The notes under the pieces were generated by a model. It saw nothing but the letters and a program-made list of their open reading frames with translations, searched no databases and had not been told where the DNA came from. Shown one piece after another: positions 1,314 to 45,463 of a DNA stretch of 46,743 nucleotides; the first letter of the stretch is position 1; every line of letters starts with the position of its first letter. This DNA comes from a virus (lineage: Duplodnaviria; Caudoviricetes): IMG/VR virus record IMGVR_UViG_3300027994_000009, positions 1-46,743 of that record, one strand, 5' to 3'. Both the position numbers and the translations under genes were made by a program.

Positions 1314-2674
1314 TATATTATGCTCCAGTTAGTGTTGTTTGAGATGAGATCTATAGACGCGCCAGGCTGCAAAGTTACTGCGCCACCATCAGCTGTCTCA
1401 GCTCCAGTAAAGGCAATTGCAACAGGTGCAGTGTGACTATTTTTTAATGTATATCGGTTGGTATTTCCTACAGCCGTAGGAAGAGTCACAGTATGAGCGC
1501 CAGCAATAATGTATACATAATCAACTGCTGATGTTGCCCCTGCGCTGACATTTCCCGAAGTAACAGTAATGCTTCGTGTTATCCCCGATCCACCACCTCC
1601 ACCAGAGTACTGAGGAATATTTAGAACATTTGCTATTAAAGTAGCTGCTCCACTTGTTCCCGTAGTTGTAAGGGTAATTGGGGCTTGGTAGTCTGTTCCT
1701 GCAGTTGCCGATGACACAACACCTGATCCATTAGCTTTGAGAAGCCCTGAGACCGTCCCTGCGCCACCTTTAGTAGATGGAACAACGTTATTATAGGTAG
1801 ACGTAATTGCAGTCGTCCCTGAGCCTGTTATATCACCTGAGATTGTGATGGTTTGGTTGGCAGTAAGATAGGTACTCGTGTCAACTGATAGTGCGCCCGT
1901 ACCCCCTGAGGTTTTTACAAATCCGTTAGAGGTAAGATTCGAGAGGGTTGCTATATTTTGACTAGTATTTACCGTTACGGTATTGGTAGTACGAGTAAGC
2001 CCAGTCGAAAATGTAAGAGGTACTTCGGGAGTTGTACCATTTGAAGCTGCAGTAATTAATCCTTTTGCGTTAACTGTAAATGAACCATACGTGAATGATC
2101 CGACATTAGAGTTAACTGTTGCAAGAACTGTAGTGTTTGTATTGTTTGCTGTCCCGTTAAAAGAACTTCCTGCACTCGTTACATCACCAGTTAGTATCCC
2201 TATCGTTCGGCTGTTTTGTAAGGCAGTAGAGGTTCCAGAGTTTCCTGTGATAGTTGTCTGATCACCTGTGTTAGTTCCAGATAGGTTAGACCCAGTAACT
2301 GCCCCAGAAGCTGATACTGATGTTGGAGTAATAGCCCCTAAACCAATTGTAAGGCTCCCTGACGTGGTTATGGGACCACCAGAGACACTTACACCATTTG
2401 CCCCTGTTCCGTTAACAGAAGTAACCGTACCAGTGCCAGATATGGTAGACCACTCTGTAGCATAATCTACGCCTGAACTCTTTTTTAGGTATTGCCCTGT
2501 AGTTCCACCTGAAGGTATACCAACACCCGAAGGACCCGCTGGACCGACTGCATCAACGTCCACGCTAATAATAACGTCAGGCGCTAATGTAATCGGTACA
2601 GATATAGGAGCAGCCAATGAAATGTCTACGTTTAAAGCATCGTCAAGATCTACGTTCACGTCAATTGGCTGCAT
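1313..2674 (-). CDS. Tail/head fibre protein, short allele (453 aa)
   Basis: G/T/S-rich repeats, GPAGP linker; first about 135 aa shared with 39002-42229. Confidence 0.7.
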   Translation of the reverse strand: MQPIDVNVDLDDALNVDISLAAPISVPITLAPDVIISVDVDAVGPAGPSGVGIPSGGTTGQYLKKSSGVDYATEWSTISGTGTVTSVNGTGANGVSVSGGPITTSGSLTIGLGAITPTSVSASGAVTGSNLSGTNTGDQTTITGNSGTSTALQNSRTIGILTGDVTSAGSSFNGTANNTNTTVLATVNSNVGSFTYGSFTVNAKGLITAASNGTTPEVPLTFSTGLTRTTNTVTVNTSQNIATLSNLTSNGFVKTSGGTGALSVDTSTYLTANQTITISGDITGSGTTAITSTYNNVVPSTKGGAGTVSGLLKANGSGVVSSATAGTDYQAPITLTTTGTSGAATLIANVLNIPQYSGGGGGSGITRSITVTSGNVSAGATSAVDYVYIIAGAHTVTLPTAVGNTNRYTLKNSHTAPVAIAFTGAETADGGAVTLQPGASIDLISNNTNWSII

Positions 2675-3018
2675 TATATATCCTTAGTTACATCTTGGAC
2701 AAATTCAATGTCCTGCTGTTTTGTACTTGAGACTTTTCCTAGTGGTGATACTGCCTGAATATCGTACACATACTGCCCAGGAGTGACCCTGGTATCAGTA
2801 TTTGATAGGGCAATAGTTGCAACATTACTGAGTATAGTAATACCGTTTGTAATATCTTTGGCGATTATCGCATCGGTATCGTTGTCTGGAGTTAGGCCAT
2901 TGATGTCTTTAACAGTAAAGAATACCTGGTATCCCGTAATATCCATCGGAAAAGTAACGATGAGACTTCTGTCGTCACCACAGATTAAAGCGTTCTTCTT
3001 GGTCAGTTTAGTTGCCAT
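2674..3018 (-). CDS. Small structural adaptor, BppU N-terminal-like (114 aa)
   Basis: GDDR..IV / DITGY.VFFTVK / PGQYVYDIQ pattern; directly upstream of fibre gene. Confidence 0.5.
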   Translation of the reverse strand: MATKLTKKNALICGDDRSLIVTFPMDITGYQVFFTVKDINGLTPDNDTDAIIAKDITNGITILSNVATIALSNTDTRVTPGQYVYDIQAVSPLGKVSSTKQQDIEFVQDVTKDI

Positions 3019-3039
3019 TGTTTCTCCTTAATATTTGGA

Positions 3040-3057
3040 GGGAGACCCCACTCTCCC
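3040..3057 (-). promoter_or_regulatory. Hairpin GGGAGA-GTGGGG-TCTCCC downstream of head genes
   Basis: 6-bp stem; copy at 42595-42612 has a compensatory A-T to T-A change and the same loop. Confidence 0.75.
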
Positions 3058-3064
3058 AATTTAA

Positions 3065-3448
3065 CTACGCAACTCTTGCCCAGGTACCGATTACTTCTTG
3101 TACAAAGTAACCACCTGTGCCTGTAGCACCACTACCAAGAAGAGTGATTTCGTCACCAGTCTTAGCTGTAGCCTTTGTGTTCACTGCACCTTTGTTTACA
3201 GTAGCGGTATAACCGTTTCCTGTAACACCATCAGCTGCTTGTGGAGCAACTGTGATACCGACTTTACCGTCGTATGATCCACCGTTACGGATAGTAAATA
3301 CTGCACCGTCGACTGTAGCTGGGAGGGTAATAGTAACTCCATCAACTGTGACGTTCTGTACAATACCACTGTCTGCAACAGTAAGAGTCTTGTTAGCCGT
3401 TACGGTCACGTTTGAGCGATCGTAGTGAGCTTGAATCGTATTTGCCAT
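3065..3448 (-). CDS. Putative capsid decoration/minor structural protein (127 aa)
   Basis: Beta-rich composition, follows capsid gene, conserved in second copy. Confidence 0.5.
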   Translation of the reverse strand: MANTIQAHYDRSNVTVTANKTLTVADSGIVQNVTVDGVTITLPATVDGAVFTIRNGGSYDGKVGITVAPQAADGVTGNGYTATVNKGAVNTKATAKTGDEITLLGSGATGTGGYFVQEVIGTWARVA

Positions 3449-3460
3449 TATATTTTATCC

Positions 3461-3811
3461 TTATTTCTTATTAGCAGATTTTACTTCTGCTGCGTTTTGT
3501 TCTGGAAGTTTCTTAGCTTCTTCAGCGGCTTTTTCAGCCTGTTTTTCTGGAGCTGAGAGGGATTCACGTACTTCTTTTTTAGCGTCTGCAGCAGATTCAC
3601 GGTACTCTTCAGTCTCCGCTTCTGTTGCTGCACGCCAACCAAGGTGGATGAAAGCATCGGCCTGAGCTGGATCAACAGCTTCGAGGAATTTCTTCTCACC
3701 AATCTTGTTGTTTAGCTCGTCTGTTGCTTCAAATACATAGACACCATTCTTGCTAACATCGCCAGTGACGCCGTTAACTTCTTGTGGTGCAATTCCTTTA
3801 GGAATAGCCAT
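3461..3811 (-). CDS. Hypothetical head-associated protein (116 aa)
   Basis: Strong RBS, directly after capsid gene, conserved in second copy. Confidence 0.5.
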   Translation of the reverse strand: MAIPKGIAPQEVNGVTGDVSKNGVYVFEATDELNNKIGEKKFLEAVDPAQADAFIHLGWRAATEAETEEYRESAADAKKEVRESLSAPEKQAEKAAEEAKKLPEQNAAEVKSANKK

Positions 3812-3838
3812 AGTATTATTCTCCTTTATTTAACTTAA

Positions 3839-4672
3839 TTAGGCAGCCATAACAGCGTAGATTGCTTTTCCACGGTTCGTTGGTATAAAGGCGTCGTAGT
3901 ATCGGCGTCCTTCAACAACCCATCCGTCAATACCCTGTACTTCATTAAGAGTACGGATCATGTCGAACTTAGTTGGGGCTACAAGTACGTCATCGGCTGT
4001 GAATAGGAATTCAGTGTTAGCTGGGAGGTAGCTTGCTGGAACGATGTGAATTGTAATTCCATCGACAATTTTAACGTCACCACTCTTTACGTCTTTGTAT
4101 GCTTCGTCAGAGGCAACCTTGAACTCAGCGTCTCGGCGGAGAAGGTTGTAATATGTACGAGTCATGAAGACGTGGATGTTCTCGTTCTCGATCAATGCGT
4201 TAGTAAAGTAAACGTTAGCAGCTAGGTAAGTCTGGTAAGCGTTCACGTTAGTAACGACAGTAACTTGTGATTGTGAGTTCGCTACAGCGTAAGCTTGTAG
4301 TGTTGCAAGACGGTACTTGTCAGTAGTAGGGATAGCGACTTCACGAACTTGTCGTTTAACGCTTTCACCAACTTCTGTAACCATCATGCTGTCAGCCCAG
4401 TTACCACGGTCGATTGAGTATGTCCATGCTTTATCTTGTGAAAGGGTAAAGGTTTGTGTACCTGTTCCCAGTTCGACTAGTTGTCCGAATCGGTTTGAAC
4501 CGCCACGAACGTAGTCAGTTTCTGCTACAACACTTACGTTGTAGATTGTTACAGACTGGCGACCATTAAAGTCAAGGCGGATACCTTTGTTAATGATGTC
4601 GTTAGTCTTTGCTTTCACGAAGTATCGTTCGTCAAGAACCTTCAGTGAAGCACTAGCGAAATTTTGTGCCAT
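3839..4672 (-). CDS. Major capsid protein (277 aa)
   Basis: Follows scaffold; size and motifs (TFTLSQDKAWTYSID, GRRYYDAF) typical of HK97-fold capsid proteins. Confidence 0.8.
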   Translation of the reverse strand: MAQNFASASLKVLDERYFVKAKTNDIINKGIRLDFNGRQSVTIYNVSVVAETDYVRGGSNRFGQLVELGTGTQTFTLSQDKAWTYSIDRGNWADSMMVTEVGESVKRQVREVAIPTTDKYRLATLQAYAVANSQSQVTVVTNVNAYQTYLAANVYFTNALIENENIHVFMTRTYYNLLRRDAEFKVASDEAYKDVKSGDVKIVDGITIHIVPASYLPANTEFLFTADDVLVAPTKFDMIRTLNEVQGIDGWVVEGRRYYDAFIPTNRGKAIYAVMAA

Positions 4673-4689
4673 TATTATTCTTTCTTTAG

Positions 4690-5487
4690 TTAGTCGTCTA
4701 AGCCCTTAAGCAAGATGTCCATAATAGGATCAGTCGTTGCTTTCTGAGTCGTAGATTCACCCGTTGTGTCAGCGGCAGCAAGTTCCCTTTCGGCAGCTTT
4801 TTTTCCGTTGATCTGACCTCGTTGTGCGCCTCGCTCATGGATCTTAGACAGTGTTTCATAAAATTTGTACGGGAGAACATTTGCCTGTACGATCTGGCCT
4901 GTCTTAGGATCTGTCTGAATACCTGAAACATTCATGTATTGTTCAGCTGCAAGCTTTGCAAAGTCTTCGTCGTAATCCTTACTCTCTGGATTAAAGACTG
5001 GGAAGTCATACAAGACTTGCATAGATTCCATATTAAGGTCGTTCGTGAGTTCTACTACGTGGGTGTTGTACTCCTTGACAGCATTCTCTTGGCGCATAGC
5101 CTCGATCTTGGCGTCAGTCTCGTCCATACCCTGTTCTTGTAGTTCAGCCGCAGTGAGGGGCTTGTACACTTGGGCATTTAACTGCTCCACTTGTCGTTGC
5201 AACTCACGCTTCTCACTTACAAGAGTACGTATGCGGTTCTCGGCGTTGTTCTTTGCCTTCGGCTTTCCTTCTTCTGTTTCCTCTGCGTTAGATTCCTCAG
5301 ACTCTTCAGTGTCCCCACTGTCTTTGGTCTCCTCGGCTTCCGTTTCTGGAGCTTCAGCCTTTTCCTCTTTGGTTTCTGCAGGTGACGATTCTGCTGGTGT
5401 AGTAGGATCTACGGTGTCGTTACCTTCGTTGTCGAAACTTAGGGTAATTTCTTCGTTAGCGTCATTAGTGCTAGAATTTTCATCCAT
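4690..5487 (-). CDS. Capsid scaffolding protein (265 aa)
   Basis: Acidic N-terminus, AENRIRTL coiled coil, lies between portal and capsid genes. Confidence 0.7.
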   Translation of the reverse strand: MDENSSTNDANEEITLSFDNEGNDTVDPTTPAESSPAETKEEKAEAPETEAEETKDSGDTEESEESNAEETEEGKPKAKNNAENRIRTLVSEKRELQRQVEQLNAQVYKPLTAAELQEQGMDETDAKIEAMRQENAVKEYNTHVVELTNDLNMESMQVLYDFPVFNPESKDYDEDFAKLAAEQYMNVSGIQTDPKTGQIVQANVLPYKFYETLSKIHERGAQRGQINGKKAAERELAAADTTGESTTQKATTDPIMDILLKGLDD

Positions 5488-5590
5488 AGCGGCCTCCTTT
5501 ATTGTTTAACGTTCGTAGCGTGAACGAATCGAGAGTTGGATAGGCTCTATGCCAGCGTCGAGTGGGGTCGACACCAGCATACAAACTACC
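5488..5590 (-). promoter_or_regulatory. Structured leader of scaffold gene, with 13-bp hairpin (5549-5580) and loop CCCCAC
   Basis: Stem closes only with G-U pairs on minus strand; leader near-identical in second copy. Confidence 0.7.
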
Positions 5591-5899
5591 CTACTTACCC
5601 AAGAATCTATCCTCCAAGTTGATGAGGTTATCTATCTCACTCAGCACTAGGGCACGGAACTTCTTGTTTGCCTCTACTAGTATCTGTACTTGGGTTGGTG
5701 GCATAGAAGCCTCAACACCCAGCTCTGAGATGGAGTCTGTTTTCTGTACGACATCTTTAAAGTGCGTGATAAGATCTTTTACGATAGGGTATGACTTCTC
5801 AAACTTAGCTTGCTCTTCGCGCTCTTCCGCATCCTGCTCTTTGGGTATAGAGTTGAAGTCGTCGAAGGCTGCTCCGTCATTAGGGTATGAATCTTCCAT
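5591..5899 (-). CDS. Hypothetical protein after portal (102 aa)
   Basis: TAATG-coupled to portal; conserved in second copy. Confidence 0.6.
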   Translation of the reverse strand: MEDSYPNDGAAFDDFNSIPKEQDAEEREEQAKFEKSYPIVKDLITHFKDVVQKTDSISELGVEASMPPTQVQILVEANKKFRALVLSEIDNLINLEDRFLGK

Positions 5900-7890
5900 T
5901 ACTCACTCCTCTCAGCTTGGCCAATTATCTCTGCTACTTCTTCAATTGGTACATCTTCACGCAACATCACAATAGCTTGGGCGATAATCTCGTTGTCAAA
6001 GCCCCGTTCTTGCAAACCTTGAATCAACTGAACTTCTTCATCTGTAAGTCCTTCGTAGTCAGCCTCGTCTATGACACCGTCAGCTAGTGGGTCTGGAAGC
6101 TGCGTGAGGGCTTCTTGTGGCGCTTCTAGTGACTCCTGTGGGACTTGTGCTAGCTCGGGTGGTAGTTGTTCCATCTGAGGTGGTAGAGCTTCACTACGAA
6201 GCTGTGCAGCCATCTGTGCTTCTTTTGCCATAGCTTGGTCTTGTGCGAACTGGTCGGCATCAATTGCAAGTTTCTCCTGATCCTCCACGCCAGTAAGAGC
6301 TGTATATTGATTCCATAGTTCGACGGCTTTCTCTGGGTATTGTTGGAGGATACCTTGAAGTAGTGGACTCGCTTCAATGCGTTGGAAGAATGAGTCAAGA
6401 GCTTCAAGTTGTGCTTCTGTGCTTGCCTTGTCTGAGGTGCTCGCGTCGACCTCAAACTTAAGCGATTCTGTAAACTCATCCCAGTCGATGATATAAACGT
6501 CGTCTTCATCTACAGCAGTAGGGTCAAGGTCGCGTACTTTACGGGCTGTTTCCTTGTCTAGTTGGATTTCTTCAATACCATGCTTATTAGCAAAGGTAAG
6601 GTTAAGCATTGATTCGAATACGTCTGAGATCCACCGTTCGTATTGTTTACGCATATAGTTGTCTGAAATACCAAGTTTTAACTGCTGTGCTTGAACACCA
6701 GCACTCGTCTTAGAGAATCCTGGGTTGCCAACTTCTGCACTGACAGAGGTATCACCGTTGTTATTCATAGCAATGATCTGAGACTTAAAGAGGCCGTAAT
6801 CGTTTGTAAAGTTGTTGAGGGCGGTCGTGTCTAGCTTTGCGCTCTCGATAGAGTTGTTCGGGTTATTCCCAAGATCCCAGATGGCGTTAGGCTGTAGTTT
6901 AAGTTGAGACTTGTTGTAGTCACCCCGTTTGATAAGAGGGGGAGCGATCATAAGAGCACGATTATACTGGTAGCTCTGAAGCATTGAGTCAATTACGTTC
7001 TGTGTACCGCCAGATAGTTCAACAACTCCACGGCCTAGTGGGTTTTCAAAGTCAATGTTTGCGTAGAGCACCTGAATAGGCATAACACCACGTGGGTCTT
7101 TGTTCTTCATGGTTCGCACAAATAGATCTGGGCCTGTTGCATAAGATAAGAACTCAGCACCAATTCCATTCTGGAAGCCGTGAATAATCTCTATCCCTTC
7201 GGCTCGAGTGTTACGCTCTTTCTCACCTGCAGACTTAGCAGCATCTTCTTTCTCAGTACACCAATCTGTAAGCTTCTTTAGTTCAGCAACATCCCATTCA
7301 CCTTCATACTTCTCGCCATTAGCCTTAGCAGTTTTACGAAGTTTCTCTTCCTTCTTGATGATGGCTTCGATGTCAGACTCTTGATACCACGCACGAATAA
7401 ATGTGTACGCACAGTCGTAGAAGGTGAGTTTACCTTTCTCAAGGAAAATATCTTTAATGTAGATAAGACGGAAGTCTCCACCGAAATACTCATTGTTGTG
7501 ACCGAAGAAGGTCATAGAGTAGCATGAACCGAAAGTTAACCCTTTACCAACTGTTCCCCAAGACTTTTGTAGTACGTCAGCTTGGGCGTTAGCATTAGGA
7601 ATAATCTGGTCTGTTAGGATGAAGTTCGCAACGATACTTTGAACATCTGATTGTGTGGTAGTAACCTTGCCAGATGGTACTTGCTGGATGATACGCTTAG
7701 GAAACTCTTGGATAATAGCTGCAAGTGTGCCGTCAGTGTTCTTTGGATACGCTTTATTGATGCCAGGATGAGGTCGGTTACGGGCGATGCGTTCGTATTC
7801 ACTAAGAGGATCTTGAAGAGGACTCATGTAGTCTTTCGAGTCGTCCCATTTCTTCTTGAAATTCTCTTTAGTAAGATAAGCTTTAGCCAC
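5899..7890 (-). CDS. Portal protein (663 aa)
   Basis: Size, position between terminase and scaffold, Gln/acidic C-terminal tail as in P22-like portals. Confidence 0.75.
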   Translation of the reverse strand: MAKAYLTKENFKKKWDDSKDYMSPLQDPLSEYERIARNRPHPGINKAYPKNTDGTLAAIIQEFPKRIIQQVPSGKVTTTQSDVQSIVANFILTDQIIPNANAQADVLQKSWGTVGKGLTFGSCYSMTFFGHNNEYFGGDFRLIYIKDIFLEKGKLTFYDCAYTFIRAWYQESDIEAIIKKEEKLRKTAKANGEKYEGEWDVAELKKLTDWCTEKEDAAKSAGEKERNTRAEGIEIIHGFQNGIGAEFLSYATGPDLFVRTMKNKDPRGVMPIQVLYANIDFENPLGRGVVELSGGTQNVIDSMLQSYQYNRALMIAPPLIKRGDYNKSQLKLQPNAIWDLGNNPNNSIESAKLDTTALNNFTNDYGLFKSQIIAMNNNGDTSVSAEVGNPGFSKTSAGVQAQQLKLGISDNYMRKQYERWISDVFESMLNLTFANKHGIEEIQLDKETARKVRDLDPTAVDEDDVYIIDWDEFTESLKFEVDASTSDKASTEAQLEALDSFFQRIEASPLLQGILQQYPEKAVELWNQYTALTGVEDQEKLAIDADQFAQDQAMAKEAQMAAQLRSEALPPQMEQLPPELAQVPQESLEAPQEALTQLPDPLADGVIDEADYEGLTDEEVQLIQGLQERGFDNEIIAQAIVMLREDVPIEEVAEIIGQAERSE

Positions 7891-16341: not shown

Positions 16342-16364
16342 ACAAATTAAATAAAAAGACCCGT

Positions 16365-16976
16365 TTAGGATCTCGTTACTTCGTCAAATATGTACTTACC
16401 AAAGTCTGGATGGACTGCGTTTCTTAGTAGCTTTCGCTGGTTCTTCGTGCCCTCTGGTAAGGTGATTCTGTACTCTGCCGCTAAAGTCTCCTTTGATTGG
16501 TCTGTGATGCGTCCAGCGTATCCACGGCTAAAGTTTGACTCGTTTATAGGCTTATTGCTCCATACAAGGTGTCTATCTATCACCGCAACAGGCGATACAA
16601 GGGGCTTGTAGTAAGGGATGACATTTTCGACAACCCAGTCGCCCTTATAGAACTGATCTAAAAATATGATCTCTTCATATAGCTTCATGTCAGGATACAC
16701 TGGCTTGCTCTTCACAAGGGACATTCTCATACGTGAGTGGCTTGGACATGGAGGACTTGACCATATAAAATCGAATTCTTTGTAGTGGTCTAAAAGGTAC
16801 TGGTGAGCATCTGCAACAATAATAGTATCATTTGGGTAGAGTGCTGCATAAGCCTCAGCAATATAAGGCTCAAACTCTACAGCCGTAACCTCATGTTCGT
16901 CACCCCAAAGATTTCTATTGCCGCCAATTCCTGCATATAGGTTAAGGATTCTCATCGCTCTAACCACTCGAACCAT
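16365..16976 (-). CDS. Compact DNA cytosine-5 methyltransferase
   Basis: Motif I LNLYAGIGG, motif IV SSPPC, motif VI VENV. Confidence 0.85.
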   Translation of the reverse strand: MVRVVRAMRILNLYAGIGGNRNLWGDEHEVTAVEFEPYIAEAYAALYPNDTIIVADAHQYLLDHYKEFDFIWSSPPCPSHSRMRMSLVKSKPVYPDMKLYEEIIFLDQFYKGDWVVENVIPYYKPLVSPVAVIDRHLVWSNKPINESNFSRGYAGRITDQSKETLAAEYRITLPEGTKNQRKLLRNAVHPDFGKYIFDEVTRS

Positions 16977-17090
16977 AGCTGCTCATAAGTAAGGTGTTTT
17001 CTCCCTACCCGTCTTAAACGGTATATTTGAAGGTCTAGTAGTGTAGCTTCTAAATCCATTGGGTTCTCCTTTTGTTATGTTCATGTATCT

Positions 17091-17201
17091 ATTGAGTAGA
17101 AGCGAGAGGGCTTTAGACCGCTGTCCTAAAGTTTACTACTAACCTCGTATACAAGGAGTTTCGTACGGTTGCCGTAGCTTTCCCTCACGGCTATACTCAA
17201 T
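17091..17201 (-). ncRNA. Stem-enclosed structured RNA, unit 1
   Basis: ATTGAGTA/TACTCAAT plus GAGGG/CCCTC closing stem; internal hairpins; boxA-like motif at 17203-17213. Confidence 0.6.
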
Positions 17202-17227
17202 CTTTTAATGTACCTTGGTTATAAGTT

Positions 17228-17320
17228 TGGGGAGTTGTAGGAATCGAACCTACTCATGAACAGTCCTTTTTCGCTATTTCTAGTTACTTGCCGTGTGCCT
17301 TCCCATCTGGCGCAACCCCC
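17228..17320 (-). ncRNA. tRNA-like element (unit 2) in outer stem 17217-17335; anticodon arm non-canonical
   Basis: Acceptor GGGGGTT/AACTCCC, D arm GCC-AGATGGGAA-GGC, T arm GTAGG-TTCGATT-CCTAC. Confidence 0.7.
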
Positions 17321-17350
17321 GTGTTTCCTATAACCTGTTTACTCTTGGAA

Positions 17351-17457
17351 GCTAGAAGCCGCTGTTGGCTGGAGTTTCACCGCCTTGCGTAACCTCTCGG
17401 TAACTGTATGCTCGTTTAAACGTCATCTCCCATCTAGTGGGTCACGTCACTTCTAGC
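17351..17457 (-). ncRNA. Stem-enclosed RNA, unit 3
   Basis: GCTAGAAG/CTTCTAGC stem; GAGA tetraloop; T-loop-like GG-TGAAACT-CC. Confidence 0.55.
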
Positions 17458-17463
17458 CTTTGT

Positions 17464-17550
17464 CTATATATAAGCATGGCTCATCATATACGTTTAGCTC
17501 GAAAGCCTTACGAAGCCGCAGATTACTCTTTTGGCAGCCCTCTTATATAG
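17464..17550 (-). ncRNA. Stem-enclosed RNA, unit 4
   Basis: TATATAAG/CTTATATA plus GGCT/AGCC; GCT-TTCG-AGC hairpin. Confidence 0.45.
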
Positions 17551-17552
17551 TT

Positions 17553-17618
17553 CGTTGCCAATAGTTCTGGCTCCAACATTACTTGTAAGCAGTAGCTATT
17601 ACGGTCTGATGGGCAACG
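17553..17618 (-). ncRNA. Possible stem-enclosed RNA, unit 5
   Basis: 7-bp CGTTGCC/GGCAACG ends, abutting unit 4. Confidence 0.3.
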
Positions 17619-17826
17619 TTCTTATTATACTGGACGTGGGAGCTTTAGTATTTCGAGGACTTCGGTTAGCTCGCTAATAAGCTGTTCAACTTCTTTCTTA
17701 TCTAGCCCAATACCTCCGACTACGGCGTAGTGGCCTTTGTGAATTTCAGTTATCATCCTCATTATATACTCCTTATAGTTCGTTAATCTTGGTCATCGTA
17801 TTCAGACTTTCCGTCTTCGAGGTTAT

Positions 17827-18120
17827 CTAGTCAGCGGTGGGGTCGATGTTTGGGATAGGGAAGTCGAAGTTCTTAAGTAACGCCATGGCTTTAAAGGCAG
17901 CCTCTCTGTCTTCATCGCTCACCCTATTACTTGCAACCATCGTCTTAAAAACAGAGTATAAATGTGCTTCAATCATTTGCTCTAGTATTTCAGCGGCTTG
18001 ACCCGTGCTTAGCTTCCATTGGCGCTCAAGCTCGTCTAACTCTCTCACTTTTGTCGTAAGTTCCTTTGCAAACGAGTGGATAGATTCCATAGGTGATAGT
18101 AGCTTAATCTCTTTACTCAT
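17827..18120 (-). CDS. Hypothetical helical protein inside the RNA array (97 aa)
   Basis: GAGGGAG RBS, clean ORF. Confidence 0.6.
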   Translation of the reverse strand: MSKEIKLLSPMESIHSFAKELTTKVRELDELERQWKLSTGQAAEILEQMIEAHLYSVFKTMVASNRVSDEDREAAFKAMALLKNFDFPIPNIDPTAD

Positions 18121-18146
18121 GTCTTCTGTATCTCCCTCTTAGTTTA

Positions 18147-18230
18147 ATTCAGTCAACGCAAGGCTATATAAGCCGCTTTCGCTCGTATCATCAATTGCGC
18201 GACGCTTATACAGCCATGTCTTAACTAAAT
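18147..18230 (-). ncRNA. Stem-enclosed RNA, unit 6
   Basis: 10-bp and 12-bp helices fully paired only with G-U on minus strand; GC-GAAA-GC. Confidence 0.65.
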
Positions 18231-18456
18231 CTTTAATCACAGAGTGCTAGCAACAATCCCTTAGCCACCACAGGAATGACCCTAGTGAACTAAACAGACA
18301 GCTCAGACTAAATAAGAGTCAGCTCTAGCATCTGTAATTGCAACTAGCTCGCTAACAGCAATCTACGTGGCTCGGTCATATTTCAAAACCGCAACATGTG
18401 ATTATTGGTGATGTCACCCGAGTCGGTTGCTACCAGCACTCTGTGATTAAAGATTT
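18227..18456 (-). ncRNA. Stem-enclosed RNA, unit 7 (230 nt)
   Basis: Perfect 22-bp inverted repeat 18227-18248/18435-18456 extended by AGCAAC/GTTGCT; boxA-like motif at 18454-18464. Confidence 0.75.
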
Positions 18457-18463
18457 TAATGTA

Positions 18464-18844
18464 CTACCACCAGTTACCAACGTCGTTACCGTTTATTGTA
18501 ACTCTCGACTGCCAAAACTGCATAGCCTTATTCCAGCTGCCGTACCGTGAGAGCATATAACGCTCCCAGTAGGCATCTTGGCAAGCATAATCAGTTCGCC
18601 AATTAGGACAATCTATTTCTAGCTGCCCGTTACAGTCCTGTCCTAATCCCTTACATCCTTGGCTATTCTCAGCATCAAGACGGTTGCTTGACTCCTTGAA
18701 ATAGATAAATGCCTTGGCCTCTGCTTCTTGTGTATCCTCGCTGAATACTGGTGAAGTGCTCAGAGGCTCTGTGACGACTGTTTGTATAGGTACTTCTACC
18801 GTCTTTGGTGTTTCAACAGTAGCGACGGTGTCTACTGGGCTTGT
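18464..18844 (-). CDS. Apf-like lytic-transglycosylase domain in -1 frame, no canonical start (not in ORF track)
   Basis: AKAFIYFKESS...GLGQ...YMLSRYGSWNKAMQFW...NWW* matches Apf/lysozyme-like pattern. Confidence 0.75.
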   Translation of the reverse strand, partial: TSPVDTVATVETPKTVEVPIQTVVTEPLSTSPVFSEDTQEAEAKAFIYFKESSNRLDAENSQGCKGLGQDCNGQLEIDCPNWRTDYACQDAYWERYMLSRYGSWNKAMQFWQSRVTINGNDVGNWW

Positions 18845-18850
18845 TTTGAC
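18798..18850 (-). promoter_or_regulatory. Candidate -1 frameshift signal: G-TCA-AAA, 6-nt spacer, H-type pseudoknot
   Basis: Stem 1 CAGTAG/CTACTG, stem 2 ACCGTC/GACGGT. Confidence 0.65.
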
Positions 18851-19047
18851 ACTTGTTTCAATGTCTGTACTTGGCTGTTAACCTGTGCTTTGATGTAATC
18901 GTTCACATTGGTCATAGCGATACCGCCACCAATAAATGCTCCGACAACTGTTGCAAGCCAAACGACTGCGATAATGAGTGTCTTTACTTTAATGGTACGT
19001 GCGATCTTCTCTTGTTCTACAAATGTTTCTAGTTTCTTGTTCTTCAC
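18832..19047 (-). CDS. Single-pass membrane protein (71 aa); N-terminal part of frameshift fusion
   Basis: GTG at 19047 after GAAAG; TM segment LIIAVVWLATVVGAFIGGGIAM. Confidence 0.7.
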   Translation of the reverse strand: MKNKKLETFVEQEKIARTIKVKTLIIAVVWLATVVGAFIGGGIAMTNVNDYIKAQVNSQVQTLKQVSKQAQ

Positions 19048-19066
19048 TTTTTTCTTTCTATTTTGT

Positions 19067-19223
19067 ATTAAGCGTACGGACTTCCCCAGCACCGTGTCCC
19101 TAACCGCCTGTCCGCAGAGCGAACTCCGTCGGATGCCTGATAGTTTGTGCCAGCGGTCTTCCTTAGCCAAGTCGCGTACTTGGGAACGGTCAGCTGTTTG
19201 CCAGGGGAATCTGTACGCTTAAT
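19067..19223 (-). ncRNA. Stem-enclosed RNA, unit 8
   Basis: 11-bp perfect ends plus TTCCCC/GGGGAA; internal CCAAGT/ACTTGG and GAG-TTCG-CTC; boxA-like motif at 19224-19234. Confidence 0.7.
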
Positions 19224-19234
19224 TGTTAATGTGT

Positions 19235-19382
19235 ATTCGACTGTATGGTGCTAGTAGCAAGATGTTTGACCCGTTAATTAATCGGGCTTTAGAGTCCTTA
19301 GACTCACTGGATTTAACTTAGTATAACCAGTTCCTTGTCGTCATACCTGTCTTGCTTACTACCAGCACTACTACAGTCGAAT
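19235..19382 (-). ncRNA. Stem-enclosed RNA, unit 9
   Basis: 11-bp perfect ends, further 12-bp helix, three internal hairpins; boxA-like motif at 19389-19399. Confidence 0.7.
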
Positions 19383-19493
19383 CTTGTTTGTTAAATTGTT
19401 GAACCTTGATTTGCCCTATTTCGTTAGCTTATGGGCTGGTGCATTTTTCCCGATCTTGGTTCTTCGTTGTATGGCCTTTCGGGTCATATATTA

Positions 19494-19522
19494 ATACTAG
19501 CACAACTTTCGCTTACCGTCAA
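19494..19522 (-). promoter_or_regulatory. Sigma70 promoter driving the RNA array, with operator at 19505-19519
   Basis: TTGACG-17-TAGTAT with extended -10 TG. Confidence 0.7.
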
Positions 19523-19532
19523 TACATAAACG

Positions 19533-19970
19533 TTATGAAATGTCTTTTAGTGCCTGTCTCCAGATAAGAACTTCTAACTTTCTGTCTTTTTTCTTGTAGG
19601 TATTTGACTGGATTATAAGCTGGTCTACCATAGGTTGCCCTTTTTGCTCTACTTGCCATGCTAAATGTTCTGCGGGCTGACTTGTAAAATACTGATGGCA
19701 TCCATAACACAAAGCGTCGCAATTCATTGGCTCAAAACGTGTACCTTCTTTAGCTCTTCCCATAAAGTGAGAGCACTGGAGGGCGTTTGTGGGAGGCTCA
19801 TAGTGTCTGCCGCACCTTTTACAGTTCCATCCGTCACGAGTCCTTATATACAAGCTAAAGGCCTTATCTGCTGCGTCTATCTTAACCATTGTGTTTCTTC
19901 TTGAAAAACACTTGACCGTCGAAGTACCAACCCGTTGATGTCGTTTGCAGAGGTTTGATACAAATTCCAA
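19533..19970 (-). CDS. NinG/Rap-like endonuclease (likely start MVKIDAAD)
   Basis: FSLYIRTRD..CKRCG..CSHF..TRF...NC..LCYGCH. Confidence 0.75.
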   Translation of the reverse strand: MEFVSNLCKRHQRVGTSTVKCFSRRNTMVKIDAADKAFSLYIRTRDGWNCKRCGRHYEPPTNALQCSHFMGRAKEGTRFEPMNCDALCYGCHQYFTSQPAEHLAWQVEQKGQPMVDQLIIQSNTYKKKDRKLEVLIWRQALKDIS

Positions 19971-20044
19971 ACATAAATGGTGTGAGTTTTGAAGCTCTAC
20001 TATTCAAATCGCAGTATGGACTATTGAGCATACTTTTTGGATAT

Positions 20045-20302
20045 TTACTCCTCATCAGTTTCACCCAGTGATAGCTTCTTTTTATAGTCATCTTTATACT
20101 TCCAGCCTTGCATATAGCTCAATGCAAGTGAACGTTCTTCGTGACGAGCCTTTGATACCTCTTGTTCGACATACACTTCAATAGCTTCGTACAGGTCGGG
20201 TTTGTCATAGTTGAAATCAAAGTACAGTTCTTCGACTATTTTTTCTATAAGTGATTTGGGATCTAGTTTCTTACTGTCTAAGTGGGGGGAGTTAGCTTTC
20301 AT
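20045..20302 (-). CDS. Hypothetical protein (85 aa)
   Basis: ATGA-coupled ORF. Confidence 0.5.
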   Translation of the reverse strand: MKANSPHLDSKKLDPKSLIEKIVEELYFDFNYDKPDLYEAIEVYVEQEVSKARHEERSLALSYMQGWKYKDDYKKKLSLGETDEE

Positions 20303-20658
20303 TTGTTCCTCACAATTAGGTTAATATCTCCGAGCCTAGTATCTTGTACGTCATCGATTGCAATAATTCTGTATTTCTTTGCTATATTTTCGTGGTCAAG
20401 TTTGGAAGCAAATGTAATCTTATCCACCAATCCTGGGAGTAACCGATTAACTATAGTTCTTGCATAGTCAGCACCGCCGCCAGACCATACTACAATCTTA
20501 ACGTTTTTCCATTTCTGATTTACAAACATAGCCAGCATGGTACGCATTGTATCGTATGTCTTCTCCTCATCAATCAATGTACCGTCTACATCAAAACATA
20601 CGGCTACTTTTTCCATACCGTCCCCAAAAGGAAGTCCTAAATCCTTATTAATGCCCAT
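20299..20658 (-). CDS. Minimal HAD-superfamily hydrolase (119 aa)
   Basis: FDVDGTL, VWSGGG, K and IDD motifs. Confidence 0.75.
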   Translation of the reverse strand: MGINKDLGLPFGDGMEKVAVCFDVDGTLIDEEKTYDTMRTMLAMFVNQKWKNVKIVVWSGGGADYARTIVNRLLPGLVDKITFASKLDHENIAKKYRIIAIDDVQDTRLGDINLIVRNK

Positions 20659-20681: not shown

Positions 20682-21152
20682 TTAGACATCTCGTGTCTCT
20701 TTTAATATCTGGCTAGTAAACTCTAGTAGCCTACTATCCCCTGTCTCTAAATCAGCAGCTAGTGACCTTATCTTTTCTAGATTGTCTATTTTCTTCGCGT
20801 CTAGAACCTCTCTTTTAATTCCAACAATAGACCTCTTTATGTGTGTCGCAACTTTAATATTGACATTTAAATGGTATTGGAGAGACAGGATGGACGTATC
20901 TGGTTCTACTGTCAGGAGGTAAAATGCAACAAGCCACTTTGAAACAGGAGTCTTTGACTTGTTAAAAACTGTCCCACCAAGAGGCGCTATGTGATATCCA
21001 CAATCATTACAAGCATAAGATGCTCTTCCTCGTATCGGCGAGAATCTAGCTGGGTTACTGCACTTCGGACATACTCTTGACTCTCCTTTCCCAAGCTTCA
21101 CCGATAGGAGAATATCTAAAATCCCTTGCTCACTGTATGATGAGTTATTCAC
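20682..21152 (-). CDS. Zinc-ribbon/HTH protein resembling IS1595 transposase N-terminus, no DDE domain
   Basis: CPKC...YACNDC...GTVFNKSKTPVSKW..AFYL. Confidence 0.65.
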   Translation of the reverse strand: MNNSSYSEQGILDILLSVKLGKGESRVCPKCSNPARFSPIRGRASYACNDCGYHIAPLGGTVFNKSKTPVSKWLVAFYLLTVEPDTSILSLQYHLNVNIKVATHIKRSIVGIKREVLDAKKIDNLEKIRSLAADLETGDSRLLEFTSQILKETRDV

Positions 21153-42000: not shown

Positions 42001-42229
42001 TAGCCCAAGTAGTATCATAGTCGCCATTTGAGTTCTTCTTGAGTACTTGACCTGTTGTTCCCCCTGTTGGGATACCTACTCCTGCAGGTCCTGCTGGACC
42101 AACTGCATCAACGTCCACGCTAATAATAACGTCAGGCGCTAGTGTAATTGGTACAGATATAGGTGCAGCCAATGAAATGTCTACATTGAGGGCGTCGTCA
42201 AGATCTACGTTCACATCAATTGGCTGCAT
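39002..42229 (-). CDS. Tail/head fibre protein, long allele (1075 aa)
   Basis: G/T/S/A-rich modules (LTGVPTAPTA..TNTTQLATT, VHLAGTETITGTKTF); C-terminal LWG..ITFP.SF fibre domain. Confidence 0.75.
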   Translation of the reverse strand: MQPIDVNVDLDDALNVDISLAAPISVPITLAPDVIISVDVDAVGPAGPAGVGIPTGGTTGQVLKKNSNGDYDTTWATASGSGTVTSVGATGSNGVSVSGSPITTSGSLTIGLGNITPTSVASTGTVTGTNLSGTNTGDQVIPTSLPPNGSAGGDLTGTYPNPTIKSSVGLTGVPTAPTATVGTNTTQLATTAYTVAQIASNDLLDVHLAGTETITGTKTFTPAPILSAGATFTAISTPSYSAGKLYYDSTEDELSFMNADANVNLQLGAETRVKVNNATGSTIANGVPVYISGQTTGVPNITPAINTTSAGSQVYGLTTESIANGASGYVTVQGKVRDVNTAAFTAGAIVYVGATPGSLTSTIPANPAFIARVGIVLTSNATTGIIYMMPQPPAAFTTQGATVDLGTVLSNAGLRTAGTAYPITTSGVVTLSGASNALGTPLTLVGTNISGTGASFTAGNATKLSTPRTIGTLTGDVTSAGSNFDGSAVNTNSTTVTRINGTALSGLATGILKNTTTTGVPSIAVAGTDYQAPLSLTTTGGSGAATLVGNTLNIPIYSGGGGGSVTSVTSANTDASVANTTTTPVITINGAPATDITVSQTAHGFTVGTPLYWNGTAYVASKADAAANAGVEGIVSTVVNANSFILTENGGPITGLSGLTSGSVYFLSPTTAGTLTTTEPTTVGQVSKPIGKALSTTSLLVNIGRGIVIAAAGSGDVTGPASATADGLATFNSTTGKIIKSGTTITASSTNLNGVVSINSNAVPSSAYVGISDSQSLTNKTYNGLLIVGSAGTLTIPTGSTFATAGAFSTTLTSTAATNVTLPTSGTLYGTASGSITSAQLATSMTDETGSGNLVFGLSPTLVTPTIGVATATSINKVAITAPTTSSTLTVADGSSLITSGAFSQTHTVTGTTNATYPAGTITLADTTTTQTLAGKTLTTPTIASFTNATHNHTNAAGGGQLGLTALSFVASSQANAGTAGGTMYYMNLGGIKMLWGTTAATLASTNGNNYGITFPTSFFTTVQMGMATLQSMNGTAAQMVGVNTYTATAANITTGNVAASTFANQTFSFFFIGT

Positions 42230-42573
42230 TATATATCCTTAGTTACGTCTTGGACAAACTCGATGTCCTGTTGTTTTGTACTTGAAACTTTGTTCGCTGG
42301 TGAGACTGCTTGGATGTCGTATACGTACTGACCAGGTGTTACACGTGTATCAGTGTTAGACAGGGCAATAGTCGCTACATTTCCTAAAATCGTAATGCCG
42401 TTTGTAATATCCTTAGCAATAATCGCATCCGTGTCGTCGTCTGGTGTCAAGCCGTTCACGTCCTTAACAGTGAAGAATATCTGGTATCCCGTAATCACCA
42501 TCGGGAAGGTAACAATAAGACTTCTATCGTCACCACAGATCAAAGCATTTTTCTTGGTCAATTTAGTGGCCAT
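42229..42573 (-). CDS. BppU-like adaptor, copy 2
   Basis: Near-identical to 2674-3018. Confidence 0.5.
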   Translation of the reverse strand: MATKLTKKNALICGDDRSLIVTFPMVITGYQIFFTVKDVNGLTPDDDTDAIIAKDITNGITILGNVATIALSNTDTRVTPGQYVYDIQAVSPANKVSSTKQQDIEFVQDVTKDI

Positions 42574-42618
42574 TGTTTCTCCTTAATATTTGGAGGGAGT
42601 CCCCACACTCCCGTTGAA

Positions 42619-43002
42619 CTAGGCTACTCGGGCAAATGTACCAATGACTTCTGAAACGAAGTATCCACCTGTACCAGTTGCACCACTACCAAGAAGAGTG
42701 ATTTCGTCACCAGTCTTAGCTGTAGCTTTTGTGTTTACTGCACCTTTGTTAACAGTAGCGGTGAAACCGTTTCCTGTAACGCCGTCAGCAGCTTGAGGTG
42801 CGACTGTGAAGCCGACCTTTCCATCGTATGATCCACCGTTACGGATAGTAAATACTGCACCGTCAACTGTTGCAGGAAGTGTAATAACAACTCCATCAAC
42901 TGTGACGTTCTGTACAATACCACTGTCTGCGACAGTAAGAGTCTTATTAGCTGTTACGGTCACGTTTGAGCGATCGTAGTGAGCTTGAATCGTATTAGCC
43001 AT
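42619..43002 (-). CDS. Putative decoration protein, copy 2
   Basis: Near-identical to 3065-3448. Confidence 0.5.
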   Translation of the reverse strand: MANTIQAHYDRSNVTVTANKTLTVADSGIVQNVTVDGVVITLPATVDGAVFTIRNGGSYDGKVGFTVAPQAADGVTGNGFTATVNKGAVNTKATAKTGDEITLLGSGATGTGGYFVSEVIGTFARVA

Positions 43003-43014
43003 TATGTTTTATCC

Positions 43015-43365
43015 TTATTTCTTATTAGCAGATTTTACTTCTGCAGCGTTTTGTTCTGGAAGCTTTGCAGCTTCTTTTGCAGCTTCTTCAGCTTGTCGTT
43101 CTGGGGCAGTCAGTGTTTCACGTACTTCTTTTTTGGCTTCTGCAGCAGATTCACGATACTCTTTAGTCTCGTCTTCTGTTGCTGCGCGCCAACCAAGGTG
43201 GATGAAAGCATCGGCTTGAGCTGGGTCAACTGCTTCGAGGAATTTCTTTTCTCCGATTTTGTTGTTTAGCTCGTCTGTTGCTTCGAATACATAGACACCA
43301 TTCTTGCTTACGTCGCCAGTGACGCCGTTAACTTCTTGTGGTGCAATTCCTTTAGGGATAGCCAT
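43015..43365 (-). CDS. Head-associated hypothetical protein, copy 2
   Basis: Homologous to 3461-3811. Confidence 0.5.
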   Translation of the reverse strand: MAIPKGIAPQEVNGVTGDVSKNGVYVFEATDELNNKIGEKKFLEAVDPAQADAFIHLGWRAATEDETKEYRESAAEAKKEVRETLTAPERQAEEAAKEAAKLPEQNAAEVKSANKK

Positions 43366-43390
43366 GTAATATTCTCCTTATTAACTTAAA

Positions 43391-44224: not shown

Positions 44225-44243
44225 GATTGTTATTCTTTCTTAG

Positions 44244-45047: not shown

Positions 45048-45151
45048 AGCGGCCTCCTTTATTGTTTAACGTTCGTAGCGTGAACGAATCGAGAGTTGGA
45101 TAGGCTCTATGCCAGCGTCGAGTGGGGTCGACACCAGCATACAGGCTACCC

Positions 45152-45463
45152 CTACTTACCCAGGAATCTATCCTCCAGGTTAATGAGGTTATCTACTTCT
45201 GACTGAACTAGGGCACGGAACTTCTTGTTAGCCTCAACTAATATCTGAACTTGGTTAGCTGGCATAGAAGCCTCTACGCCTAGACTAGAGATGGAGTCGG
45301 TATCACTGATAACCTGTTTGAAATGGGTAATGAGGTCTTTTACAATAGGGTAAGACTTTTCAAATTTAGACTGCTCTTCACGTTCTTCAGCATCCTGTTC
45401 TTTAGGAATGGAGTTAAAGTCGTCAAATGGTTGACCATCGTTAGGGTAAGTATCGTCGTTCAT
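45152..45463 (-). CDS. Hypothetical protein after portal, copy 2
   Basis: Homologous to 5591-5899. Confidence 0.6.
   Translation of the reverse strand: MNDDTYPNDGQPFDDFNSIPKEQDAEEREEQSKFEKSYPIVKDLITHFKQVISDTDSISSLGVEASMPANQVQILVEANKKFRALVQSEVDNLINLEDRFLGK

Follow-up and report, generated by a model that had tools for sequence, protein, structure and literature searches.

A phage array of stem-enclosed, exchangeable cargos that resembles miniature rRNA processing cassettes

Introduction

What does a phage operon produce when most of its non-coding DNA lies between ends that pair with each other? The window analysed here, the whole 46,743-nt stretch of IMG/VR record IMGVR_UViG_3300027994_000009, belongs to a podovirus-like phage and carries an array of nine stem-closed units and four ORFs on one minus-strand operon. 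The initial annotation had described a promoter-driven series of structured RNAs and interpreted it, by analogy with rRNA precursors, as a polycistronic cassette processed into separate small RNAs with exchangeable cargo. We confirmed the observation, which was largely right and understated the array, and found the interpretation partly supported. Our data suggest that the units are probably miniature rRNA-style cassettes, in which NusB and NusE would aid folding, RNase III would excise the cargo, and recombination between the arms would swap it.

Results

Nine stem-closed units occupy a minus-strand operon

We reproduced both the coordinates and the end pairing of the nine units (Table 1), including the perfect 22-bp closing stem of unit C and the closing stem common to units A and C. 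The units contain 1105 of the 1415 nt (78%) of non-coding DNA in the operon and, since the four ORFs occupy about 42% of positions 17091–19522, fall into three clusters. When folding was compared with shuffles, the minus strand was the better folded in eight of the nine units. The position of the promoter was kept in six of the eight relatives checked. Directly after it lies a leader unit that the initial annotation had overlooked and that is a possible cis-acting antiterminator.

Table 1 Features of the array and its surroundings (L numbers denote loci of related phages; z, minus-strand folding score against 100 dinucleotide shuffles, partly circular because paired ends were the selection criterion for units)
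Feature	Position	Strand	Description
Sigma70-type promoter, extended −10	19494..19522	−	9/12 in a generic scan, TG; same place in L001, L003, L005, L006, L007, L018
5' hairpin and leader unit (19401–19462)	19401..19488	−	Fold; 96% identity in L011; related leaders in L001, L155
Unit A	19235..19382	−	z −7.8; carrier with variant outer arm, common inner stem and 3x2 internal loop; cargo about 95 nt, 89% identity in L242 in a different carrier, and combined with the common outer arm in contig loose ends
Host-type boxA	19220..19236	−	10.9 bits, rank 2 in window; overlaps start of unit B
Unit B	19067..19223	−	z −3.1; common outer arm, multibranched cargo; 98% identity in L011, both changes leaving a UUCG stem paired
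71-aa membrane-anchor ORF	18832..19047	−	Homologues in L001, L005, L007
Start-less ORF, −1 frame	18464..18874	−	Presumably lytic-transglycosylase-like
Host-type boxA	18450..18466	−	13.1 bits, rank 1 in window; overlaps start of unit C
Unit C	18227..18456	−	z −6.8; 22-bp stem, 3-nt bulge, common inner stem, cargo about 170 nt
Unit D	18147..18230	−	z −4.4; inner-arm type carrier, small cargo; arm type nested in L236, L237, L242, L027
97-aa ORF between clusters	17827..18120	−	No family match
45-aa ORF	17625..17762	−	In the ORF set scanned with Pfam and PHROGs
Unit E	17553..17618	−	z −1.5; short carrier, conserved 5' bulge, variable upper stem; closing stem also in L001, L005, L011, L254, L257, L457
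Unit F	17464..17550	−	z −0.8; conserved three-way-junction RNA with GNRA and UUCG hairpins; recurrent cargo family
Unit G	17351..17457	−	z −2.1; inner-arm carrier, multibranched cargo; arms enclose a different cargo in L237
Unit H	17217..17335	−	z −1.6; carrier around tRNA-like RNA (about 17229–17320); arms enclose other cargo in L001, L007, L011
Host-type boxA	17199..17215	−	9.4 bits, rank 5 in window; ahead of unit I
Unit I	17091..17201	−	z −3.4; carrier, multibranched cargo; arms enclose other cargo in L011, L254
35-aa Arg/Trp-rich ORF	16952..17059	−	Last element of the array; 12 distinct homologues
C5 methyltransferase gene and intrinsic terminator	16356..16976	−	Predicted transcript end

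The array is not CRISPR-like, as had been stated: regular direct repeats, the criterion for CRISPR and TIGR systems, were absent, with two-copy families only among the 20 largest repeat families listed, and no Cas or Nop-domain partner gene was found among the 66 window ORFs scanned with Pfam and PHROGs. A density scan for 12-bp inverted repeats set the array apart weakly (7 versus 1–6 per 2.5 kb). PADLOC returned methyltransferase matches and one 14-bit zinc-ribbon match, and no others, for eight nearby ORFs.

The start-less ORF, which we take to encode a lytic-transglycosylase-like protein, had no Pfam or PHROG match, is probably reached by a −1 frameshift at about 18845, and has no counterpart in the cultured phages searched. 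The 35-aa ORF belongs to a conserved family without a match to a named one, and its peptide is a candidate RNA-binding partner; for this ORF and the 97-aa ORF, the ESM Atlas yielded nothing usable. The phage also encodes an Erf-like annealing protein, as well as a nuclease of the NinG/Rap type.

One carrier encloses many unrelated cargos

In relatives, one near-invariant closing stem, hereafter the common carrier, was found in 37 units whose cargos form 34 clusters, range from 67 to 674 nt and include structured RNAs, tRNA-like RNAs, small ORFs with ribosome-binding sites and HNH genes. An identical 16-nt 3' arm, which was no part of the search that collected these units, is present in 31 of the 37; it accompanied the 5' arm in 32 of 44 metagenome matches and in 0 of 20 bacterial-genome matches. 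The exchangeability proposed for the cargo thus holds at the sequence level, with 34 unrelated cargos in one carrier and recurrence of cargos A and F in other carriers. A slot that carries cargo F in L027 is occupied by tRNA-Cys in L028, and in L241 a carrier is placed ahead of a tRNA cluster. The cargos, originally interpreted as separate small RNAs, also include ORFs and a true tRNA, so the cassette is not an RNA-only device.

The arms themselves also vary. At least 22 distinct outer arms, in units chosen for pairing, differ in sequence and remain paired, hybrid arms occur in L001 and L011, and nested carriers form multiway junctions in L027, L236, L237, L242 and a Saccharibacteria prophage. 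Cargos are empty or very short in L242 and L247, and the stretch read for the NinG neighbours L020–L024 contained no array. A finder combining boxA with an arm yielded 65 units from 177 sites; because random controls gave 70 of 400, it was used solely to collect units, and its measure of arm pairing, 171 of 176 cells, is circular. A 14-nt pattern scan gave mostly chance matches; two of 120 loci were new and stem-closed, one of these by chance.

Most mismatches had been reported as G-U on the minus strand and read as a sign of selection on RNA. For the closing stems this strand bias was not supported: a strand-symmetric count gave 7 G-U versus 6 A-C mismatches in the window and, for relatives, 35 of each in 27 distinct carriers. 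Across 30 carriers, positions 1–11 were nearly all paired and irregularities were highest at position 13; clustering of A-C mismatches at positions 11–15 was not significant (p=0.07). Common carriers, 24–28 bp long, contain an internal irregularity after one turn, and the closing stems of units E, G and H reach only 7–11 bp, which is short for RNase III.

Host-type boxA elements precede many stems in the register of host rRNA operons

The AT-rich spacer that precedes many stems corresponds in sequence to boxA as found in the rRNA operons of Patescibacteria. Its register is that of the host as well: in host rRNA leaders, the 3' end of boxA starts the processing helix. A matrix trained only on 28 boxA sites from the likely host group placed three array unit starts first, second and fifth in the window, and 22 of the 37 common carriers scored at least 6 bits, compared with 1.2% of controls. 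These findings strengthen the rRNA-precursor analogy of the initial annotation. Of the 41 genomes sampled from the Saccharibacteria order, 40 had NusB and 39 had RNase III, and the two genes were mostly separated by no more than about 1 kb. Integrated relatives occur in Saccharibacteria and in actinomycetes, the latter including prophages of Pseudarthrobacter sp. H2 (L027), Arthrobacter sp. KNU40 (L028) and Naasia lichenicola (L461); a capsid profile search of genomes gave matches, and a single-sequence capsid search gave none.

Cargo RNAs are under RNA-type selection

Selection at the RNA level lost its G-U argument and gained support from cargo motifs and covariation. GNRA loops occurred 22 times in sense and 3 times in antisense orientation (shuffles: mean 8.3, maximum 18), T arms were found in 6 of 60 cargos versus 0.02 in shuffled ones, and T-arm motifs numbered 37 in sense and 1 in antisense. 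Of the loop motifs noted originally, GNRA and T-loops therefore proved specific to the sense strand; the excess of UNCG did not reach significance (8 versus a shuffle maximum of 8). Cargo F, for which a model found three further homologues, showed two-sided changes in 4 of 15 pairs in 10 phages, with 95% of the cells in the ten-sequence alignment paired, and a T-loop family of 12 sequences covaried in four of five pairs.

The RNA in unit H has an acceptor stem, a D arm and a T arm, and no other T-arm motif occurs on the minus strand of the window. Its anticodon loop is remodelled and 27 nt long, and a CCA in register is not encoded; neither ARAGORN nor Rfam called the RNA. The window contains no canonical cloverleaf tRNA genes, and relatives have canonical ones in L028 and L241 and atypical ones in L005. 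An intron-bearing tRNA in unit H and a tmRNA in unit C were called by ARAGORN at relaxed thresholds only, where its output amounted to noise; for unit C there were four overlapping calls, no tag was recognised and no T arm was found. In agreement with the earlier failure to recognise a named system, Rfam matched nothing in the window, rRNA included, and only tRNA in 47 locus scans of relatives; no GOLLD, ROOL, riboswitch or ribozyme reached the gathering threshold in either set.

The idea that cargos mimic rRNA sequences arose because unit I matches 23S rRNA over 13 nt and cargo F has an H81-like loop. We did not accept it after comparing counts of conserved rRNA words with shuffles: 45 versus 32 at k=9 (2 of 100 shuffles as high), 10 versus 6.9 at k=10 (16 of 100) and 3 versus 1.6 at k=11 (21 of 100). 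Cargo F was also rejected as a captured host RNA, with one weak match (E=0.0013) in 141 Saccharibacteria-order genomes and, in 141 actinomycete-order genomes, only the prophage itself.

Discussion

How might such an array work? In the reading that we consider probable, a cassette consists of an unrelated RNA or small gene and the long helix that closes around it, often with a copy of the host boxA ahead, and host NusB/NusE and RNase III would fold and cut each cargo from one long phage transcript. Nus factors bound to boxA may keep the 5' arm attached to RNA polymerase and thereby let it anneal with the 3' arm, a mechanism put forward for the leader-trailer helices of rRNA (PMC10250234, in part). 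RNase III, whose site lies in the helix (PMC5725501, in part), would cut about one helical turn from the base, at an A-C mismatch or small internal loop, and the products would be end-clamped, exonuclease-resistant RNAs. The conserved arms could double as recombination homology for the Erf-like protein and NinG/Rap, with an HNH gene in some slots, and because of this homology cargo turnover would be fast. Several observations count against this reading: the closing stems show no G-U excess and no significant A-C clustering, and those of E, G and H are short for RNase III; 15 of the 37 common carriers score below 6 bits for boxA; only three of the nine window units have a clear boxA in front, that of A being degenerate and D–H having none; relatives integrated in actinomycetes retain a Patescibacteria-like boxA, on whose scale the Arthrobacter rRNA boxA reaches 0.2 bits; and the near invariance of one carrier exceeds what RNase III requires.

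The helices could instead be insulators of folding that stay uncut, the cargos forming domains of one long transcript that act in cis or together (antiterminators, ligand sensors, ribozymes, protein sponges) and boxA serving antitermination only. The short closing stems of E, G and H, the multiway junctions of nested carriers and the conserved leader directly after the promoter would suit this explanation, and folding without cutting is possible because in E. coli the importance of the leader-trailer helix does not depend on RNase III (PMC10250234, in part). We nevertheless regard it as unlikely, since a true tRNA and ORFs with ribosome-binding sites, which need or profit from release, are among the cargos, and the common carriers are long with their irregularity one turn in. 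Fewer chances still are given to a permissive tRNA-operon junkyard, in which decayed tRNAs, host fragments and selfish elements would accumulate, mostly neutrally, in a processing scaffold. Most cargos are indeed singletons, cargos C, D, G, H and I have no homologue among the fetched loci, some cargos are empty or very short, and some relatives have no array; against neutrality, the loops of cargo F and of the T-loop family are invariant and their stems show compensatory pairs in phages of 41–58% G+C and across host phyla, cargo F is no host housekeeping RNA, and the rRNA words shared by cargos are not above shuffles.

It is very improbable that the arms are primarily DNA-level signals, such as terminal inverted repeats or integron-like or recombinase sites, by which cassettes would move from phage to phage, with arm folding in the RNA as a by-product. 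Near invariance across divergent phages, the missing G-U strand bias, HNH genes as cargo, the hybrid arms and an IS1595-type zinc-ribbon ORF at 20682–21152 would favour such signals. Yet the many distinct outer arms differ and still pair (in units chosen for pairing), every unit has the orientation of the promoter, and boxA lies on one strand, outside the 5' arm only. Beyond the 3' arm there is nothing complementary to this motif, which differs from the geometry of attC, and no integrase or transposase catalytic domain was found among the 66 window ORFs scanned with Pfam and PHROGs.

Within the cassette reading, the cargos might serve counter-defence or host takeover. Since cargos turn over and many of them are tRNA-like with a destroyed anticodon arm, we tentatively propose a role in an arms race, in which they would be decoys for, or compete for, the RNA-targeting defences and the translation factors of the host. 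A still more speculative extension is a general platform for small-RNA expression, copied from the host rRNA operon and shared among phages as an RNA-based counter-defence arsenal; its repertoire of anticodon-less tRNA mimics, aptamers and decoys would be large and fast-turning, and common to phages that infect Saccharibacteria and phages of the actinomycetes that host these bacteria.

Accessory hotspots for proteins are known in phages, and the array represents one for RNAs. Its fixed, searchable carrier exactly delimits dozens of new structured RNAs, which covariance searches miss because each is rare, and turns the role of phage non-coding RNAs and broken-looking phage tRNAs into a testable list. 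The cassette reading would show that boxA and the leader-trailer machinery, thought to be mainly dedicated to rRNA, are reused as a modular RNA-production device, and the carrier could provide a natural clamp for small-RNA expression. Saccharibacteria are hard to grow; relatives integrated in cultured and harmless actinomycetes make these ideas testable.

We found no description of an array of this kind in the literature searched, and several known systems share parts of its design. Integron cassettes and the boundary sequences of mosaic phages likewise place conserved short flanks around hypervariable tandem cargo, but the flanks of the array are complementary and enclose rather than separate the cargo, which is mostly non-coding, and the window has no integrase. 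The tRNA clusters of T4 and T5 supply extra stable tRNA-like RNAs, and in L028 and L241 true tRNAs and tRNA-like RNAs similarly share one late operon; in the array, by contrast, each RNA has its own carrier, most are not tRNA-like, and the content varies in nearly every genome. Host RNase III splits the polycistronic early transcript of T7 at local hairpins between genes. The boxA of lambdoid nut sites recruits Nus factors (PMC10250234, in part). Phage use of RNase III and of boxA thus has precedents, although the array has long-range helices around each cargo in place of local hairpins and single nut sites, and no N-like protein was identified in its phage. GOLLD, ROOL and viral candidate structured RNAs are also structured phage RNAs near tRNAs (PMC10690425, in part), whereas those of the array have no Rfam match. 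The main text of PMC10690425 mentions no boxA, RNase III or array, and single cargos may figure in its supplements. In the cistrons of rRNA operons, too, boxA lies immediately before a long helix that surrounds a structured RNA (PMC10250234, in part), and the boxA type and register of the array are those of Saccharibacteria and other Patescibacteria. Compared with these operons (rrnTAC, RNase III), many array units have no boxA and RNase III cutting is predicted; the array is phage-borne and consists of many short units, whose cargo is not rRNA and is exchanged between genomes.

Nine stem-closed units in a minus-strand phage operon

The window is a single phage contig with genes for terminase, major capsid protein, holin, an Erf-like annealing protein, a NinG/Rap nuclease and HNH; ORF annotation recognised no long-tail genes in it. 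The head/portal block is duplicated at its ends (2479-7110 and 42034-46737, 82-88% identical), which probably reflects a junction there between two related phage genomes. The array is situated far from this probable joint, and contigs of sequencing run X1, which may be the window's source, span 16379-20500 without any difference from it. Every gene around the array lies on the minus strand.

Features of the array locus and of one RNA family in relatives' loci (L numbers)
Feature	Position	Strand	Remark
Promoter	19522-19494	minus	
Unit A	19235-19382	minus	
Unit B	19067-19223	minus	
Membrane-anchor ORF	18832-19047	minus	overlaps start-less transglycosylase-like ORF
Transglycosylase-like ORF	18464-18874	minus	without start
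Unit C	18227-18456	minus	
Unit D	18147-18230	minus	
Unit E	17553-17618	minus	
Unit F	17464-17550	minus	
Unit G	17351-17457	minus	
Unit H	17217-17335	minus	
Unit I	17091-17201	minus	
35-aa Arg/Trp-rich ORF	16952-17059	minus	12 distinct homologues
Terminator	16374-16356	minus	
ORF with IS1595-type zinc ribbon	20682-21152	minus	
T-loop RNA family	L003:3320-3429, L006, L027, L002, L158, L164, L165, L177, L181, L197, L207, L266		

The nine units proposed in the initial annotation were present, each folding as its own stem-closed domain. Folding z-scores fell below -3 in five of nine (against 100 dinucleotide shuffles; partly circular, the units having been picked for paired ends), and the minus strand gave the better fold in eight. 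Near-complete tiling of non-coding DNA had been described; the units do take 1105 of 1415 non-coding bases, but in three clusters with four ORFs between them. The description of most mismatches as G-U fails in the closing stems: G-U and A-C mismatches number 7 and 6 in the window, and 35 each across 27 distinct carriers (enclosing helices) of relatives. An Rfam scan of the window gave nothing at gathering level; relaxing the cutoff to E = 5 added just two matches, both ascribed to chance, and ARAGORN found no tRNA genes in the window.

The transglycosylase-like ORF lies in the -1 frame in 20 of 21 relatives with an overlapping upstream ORF found, and in those relatives an A-run (mostly Ser/Leu-Lys codons) stands a few codons ahead of the stop; the overlap is likely a conserved programmed -1 frameshift. 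The 35-aa ORF, often the first gene following an RNA cluster, encodes a candidate RNA-binding partner. A domain search of the zinc-ribbon ORF found no transposase catalytic domain.

Carriers are reused around changing cargos

Relatives' loci, collected with proteins neighbouring the array, retain closing stems while the enclosed cargos differ, bearing out the exchangeable cargo initially proposed. When the 5' arm of the most frequent closing stem was used as a scan query, 38 distinct units were recovered, or 37 after removal of one row spanning two units. These 37 units measure 67-674 nt and sort into 34 clusters by cargo; in 31 of the units the 16-nt 3' arm is identical. This arm was present at 32 of 44 metagenome matches to the 5' arm, the other 12 being four variant arms, two at a contig end and six chance-like, and at none of 20 bacterial-genome matches. 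Cargo content is mostly non-coding; small ORFs with an RBS occur in L170 and inside other carriers (L006, L165, L186, L252), and promoter-plus-HNH inserts in L005, L156 and L162. Arm recombination is seen in L001, where the unit B outer arm is joined to the unit A inner stem; both L242 and contigs of run X2 place cargo A within a different carrier. Carriers are also nested, with two or three inner helices, whose arms are those of units D, F and G, within one outer helix. In a Saccharibacteria prophage (L305:8623-9050) a boxA-led carrier surrounds an ORF directly upstream of the capsid block; thus the use of carriers extends beyond the array.

Cargos carry signs of selection as RNA

Motif counts and covariation indicate that cargos are selected as RNA. 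GNRA hairpins in 60 cargos numbered 22 in sense vs 3 in antisense, where shuffles gave 8.3 on average and 18 at most; T arms occur in six of the cargos, vs 0.02 in shuffles. In a set of 100 oriented sources that includes duplicate contigs, 37 T-arm motifs (31 distinct) lay in sense and one in antisense; the sole one on the window minus strand is in unit H. Many of these cargos resemble tRNA with an altered anticodon arm (H, L006, L018, L189, L200, L213, L217, L223, L237 and L254). A slot filled by cargo F in L027 contains a canonical tRNA-Cys in L028, and in L241 a carrier precedes 11 tRNAs (ARAGORN). The stem-enclosed tRNA at L005:5557-5626 has an uncommon anticodon, ATG, and was called as His. 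The Rfam scan of relatives' loci returned tRNAs only.

Covariation among homologs, initially suggested as a check, was found for cargo F, with two-sided changes at 4 of 15 pairs and 95% of cells paired across 10 phages, six of whose sequences were found by a pattern fixing part of the sequence. Three measures exceed all 500 shuffles, a control that relatedness can inflate, and the model retrieved three further homologues. The T-loop RNA family does not occur in the window and matches no Rfam family; across 12 sequences, 4 of its 5 pairs covary. Its loop residues are invariant, and its hosts are low-G+C phages and Arthrobacter-group prophages. Another cargo family (L003:3467-3740, L007:5065-5200, L167, L471) combines a tRNA-Leu-like D-arm start with a long variable interior. 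A second conserved leader RNA type, right behind the promoter in L005, L078, L165, L240, L254 and L266, occupies the position equivalent to window 19401-19462 and is possibly a cis-acting antiterminator. Cargos as rRNA mimics at the sequence level and cargo F as a host-derived RNA were tested and found unsupported.

The probable host and its rRNA bracket

Among the eleven genomic loci closest by capsid, five are from Saccharibacteria MAGs, one is from a Paceibacterota MAG and three are from actinomycete isolates. In a Saccharibacteria contig, a ~38-kb relative with an integrase-like ORF, the same methyltransferase as the window and boxA-led nested carriers sits between duplicated tRNA-Asn ends, flanked by non-phage genes. 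Higher-G+C relatives in Arthrobacter-group and Naasia chromosomes have the same carriers and cargo F. The window's G+C of 43% and its boxA type favour Saccharibacteria as the probable host. Phages common to Saccharibacteria and their actinomycete hosts have been predicted (bioRxiv 2022.11.22.517103), and such sharing was shown in one case (PMC13578794).

In 23S leaders of sampled Patescibacteria and, within the Saccharibacteria order, in 16S leaders too, boxA runs directly into the processing helix. A matrix derived solely from 28 such host sites (16S leaders 12/12; 23S loci 16/20), applied to both strands of the window, ranked 18466 first, 19236 second and 17215 fifth, all minus-strand unit starts. 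It scored at least 6 bits in 22 of 37 carriers vs 1.2% of controls; only three of the nine window units have boxA in front. These sequence matches indicate that the carrier copies the host rRNA bracket. A search of 41 Saccharibacteria-order genomes (one unpublished, on which no result hinges) detected NusB in 40 and RNase III in 39. In most of them nusB and rnc adjoin (within ~1 kb, one strand; e.g. G419:C3:280959-282356), which suggests that boxA-dependent folding is coupled to RNase III processing in these hosts.

Proposed mechanism and alternatives

We consider it fairly probable that each boxA-led helix forms an rRNA-type cistron in miniature. Nus factors would assist annealing of the carrier arms, RNase III would free the cargo from the transcript as a stable product clamped by the helix, and cargos would be exchanged by recombination between conserved arms, sometimes driven by HNH cargos. 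In E. coli, NusB on boxA is proposed to keep hold of the leader until the trailer has been transcribed, and the leader-trailer helix contains the RNase III site (PMC10250234); a loop model also appears in PMC5725501. In 30 carriers positions 1-11 are near-fully paired, with a mismatch peak at position 13, mostly A-C (clustering p=0.07).

That the helices are folding insulators, left uncut, is unlikely; the E. coli helix matters also without RNase III (PMC10250234). The array as a neutral junkyard is more improbable still, and least probable are arms serving as DNA-level cassette ends. Within the rRNA-type cistron reading, the weakest step is what cargos do: as they are hypervariable and include tRNA mimics lacking an anticodon, we tentatively propose that they counter RNA-targeting defences as decoys or competitors.

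The main text of a viral structured RNA catalogue (PMC10690425) is without boxA, RNase III or arrays, and its supplements may list single cargos. A full-text literature search, covering a minority of subscription papers, found no description of numerous novel RNAs housed in one conserved carrier with interchangeable contents. T7, T4/T5, integrons and boundary sequences are the systems with which the array is to be compared. The component parts are already known; their combination into such a carrier appears to be new.
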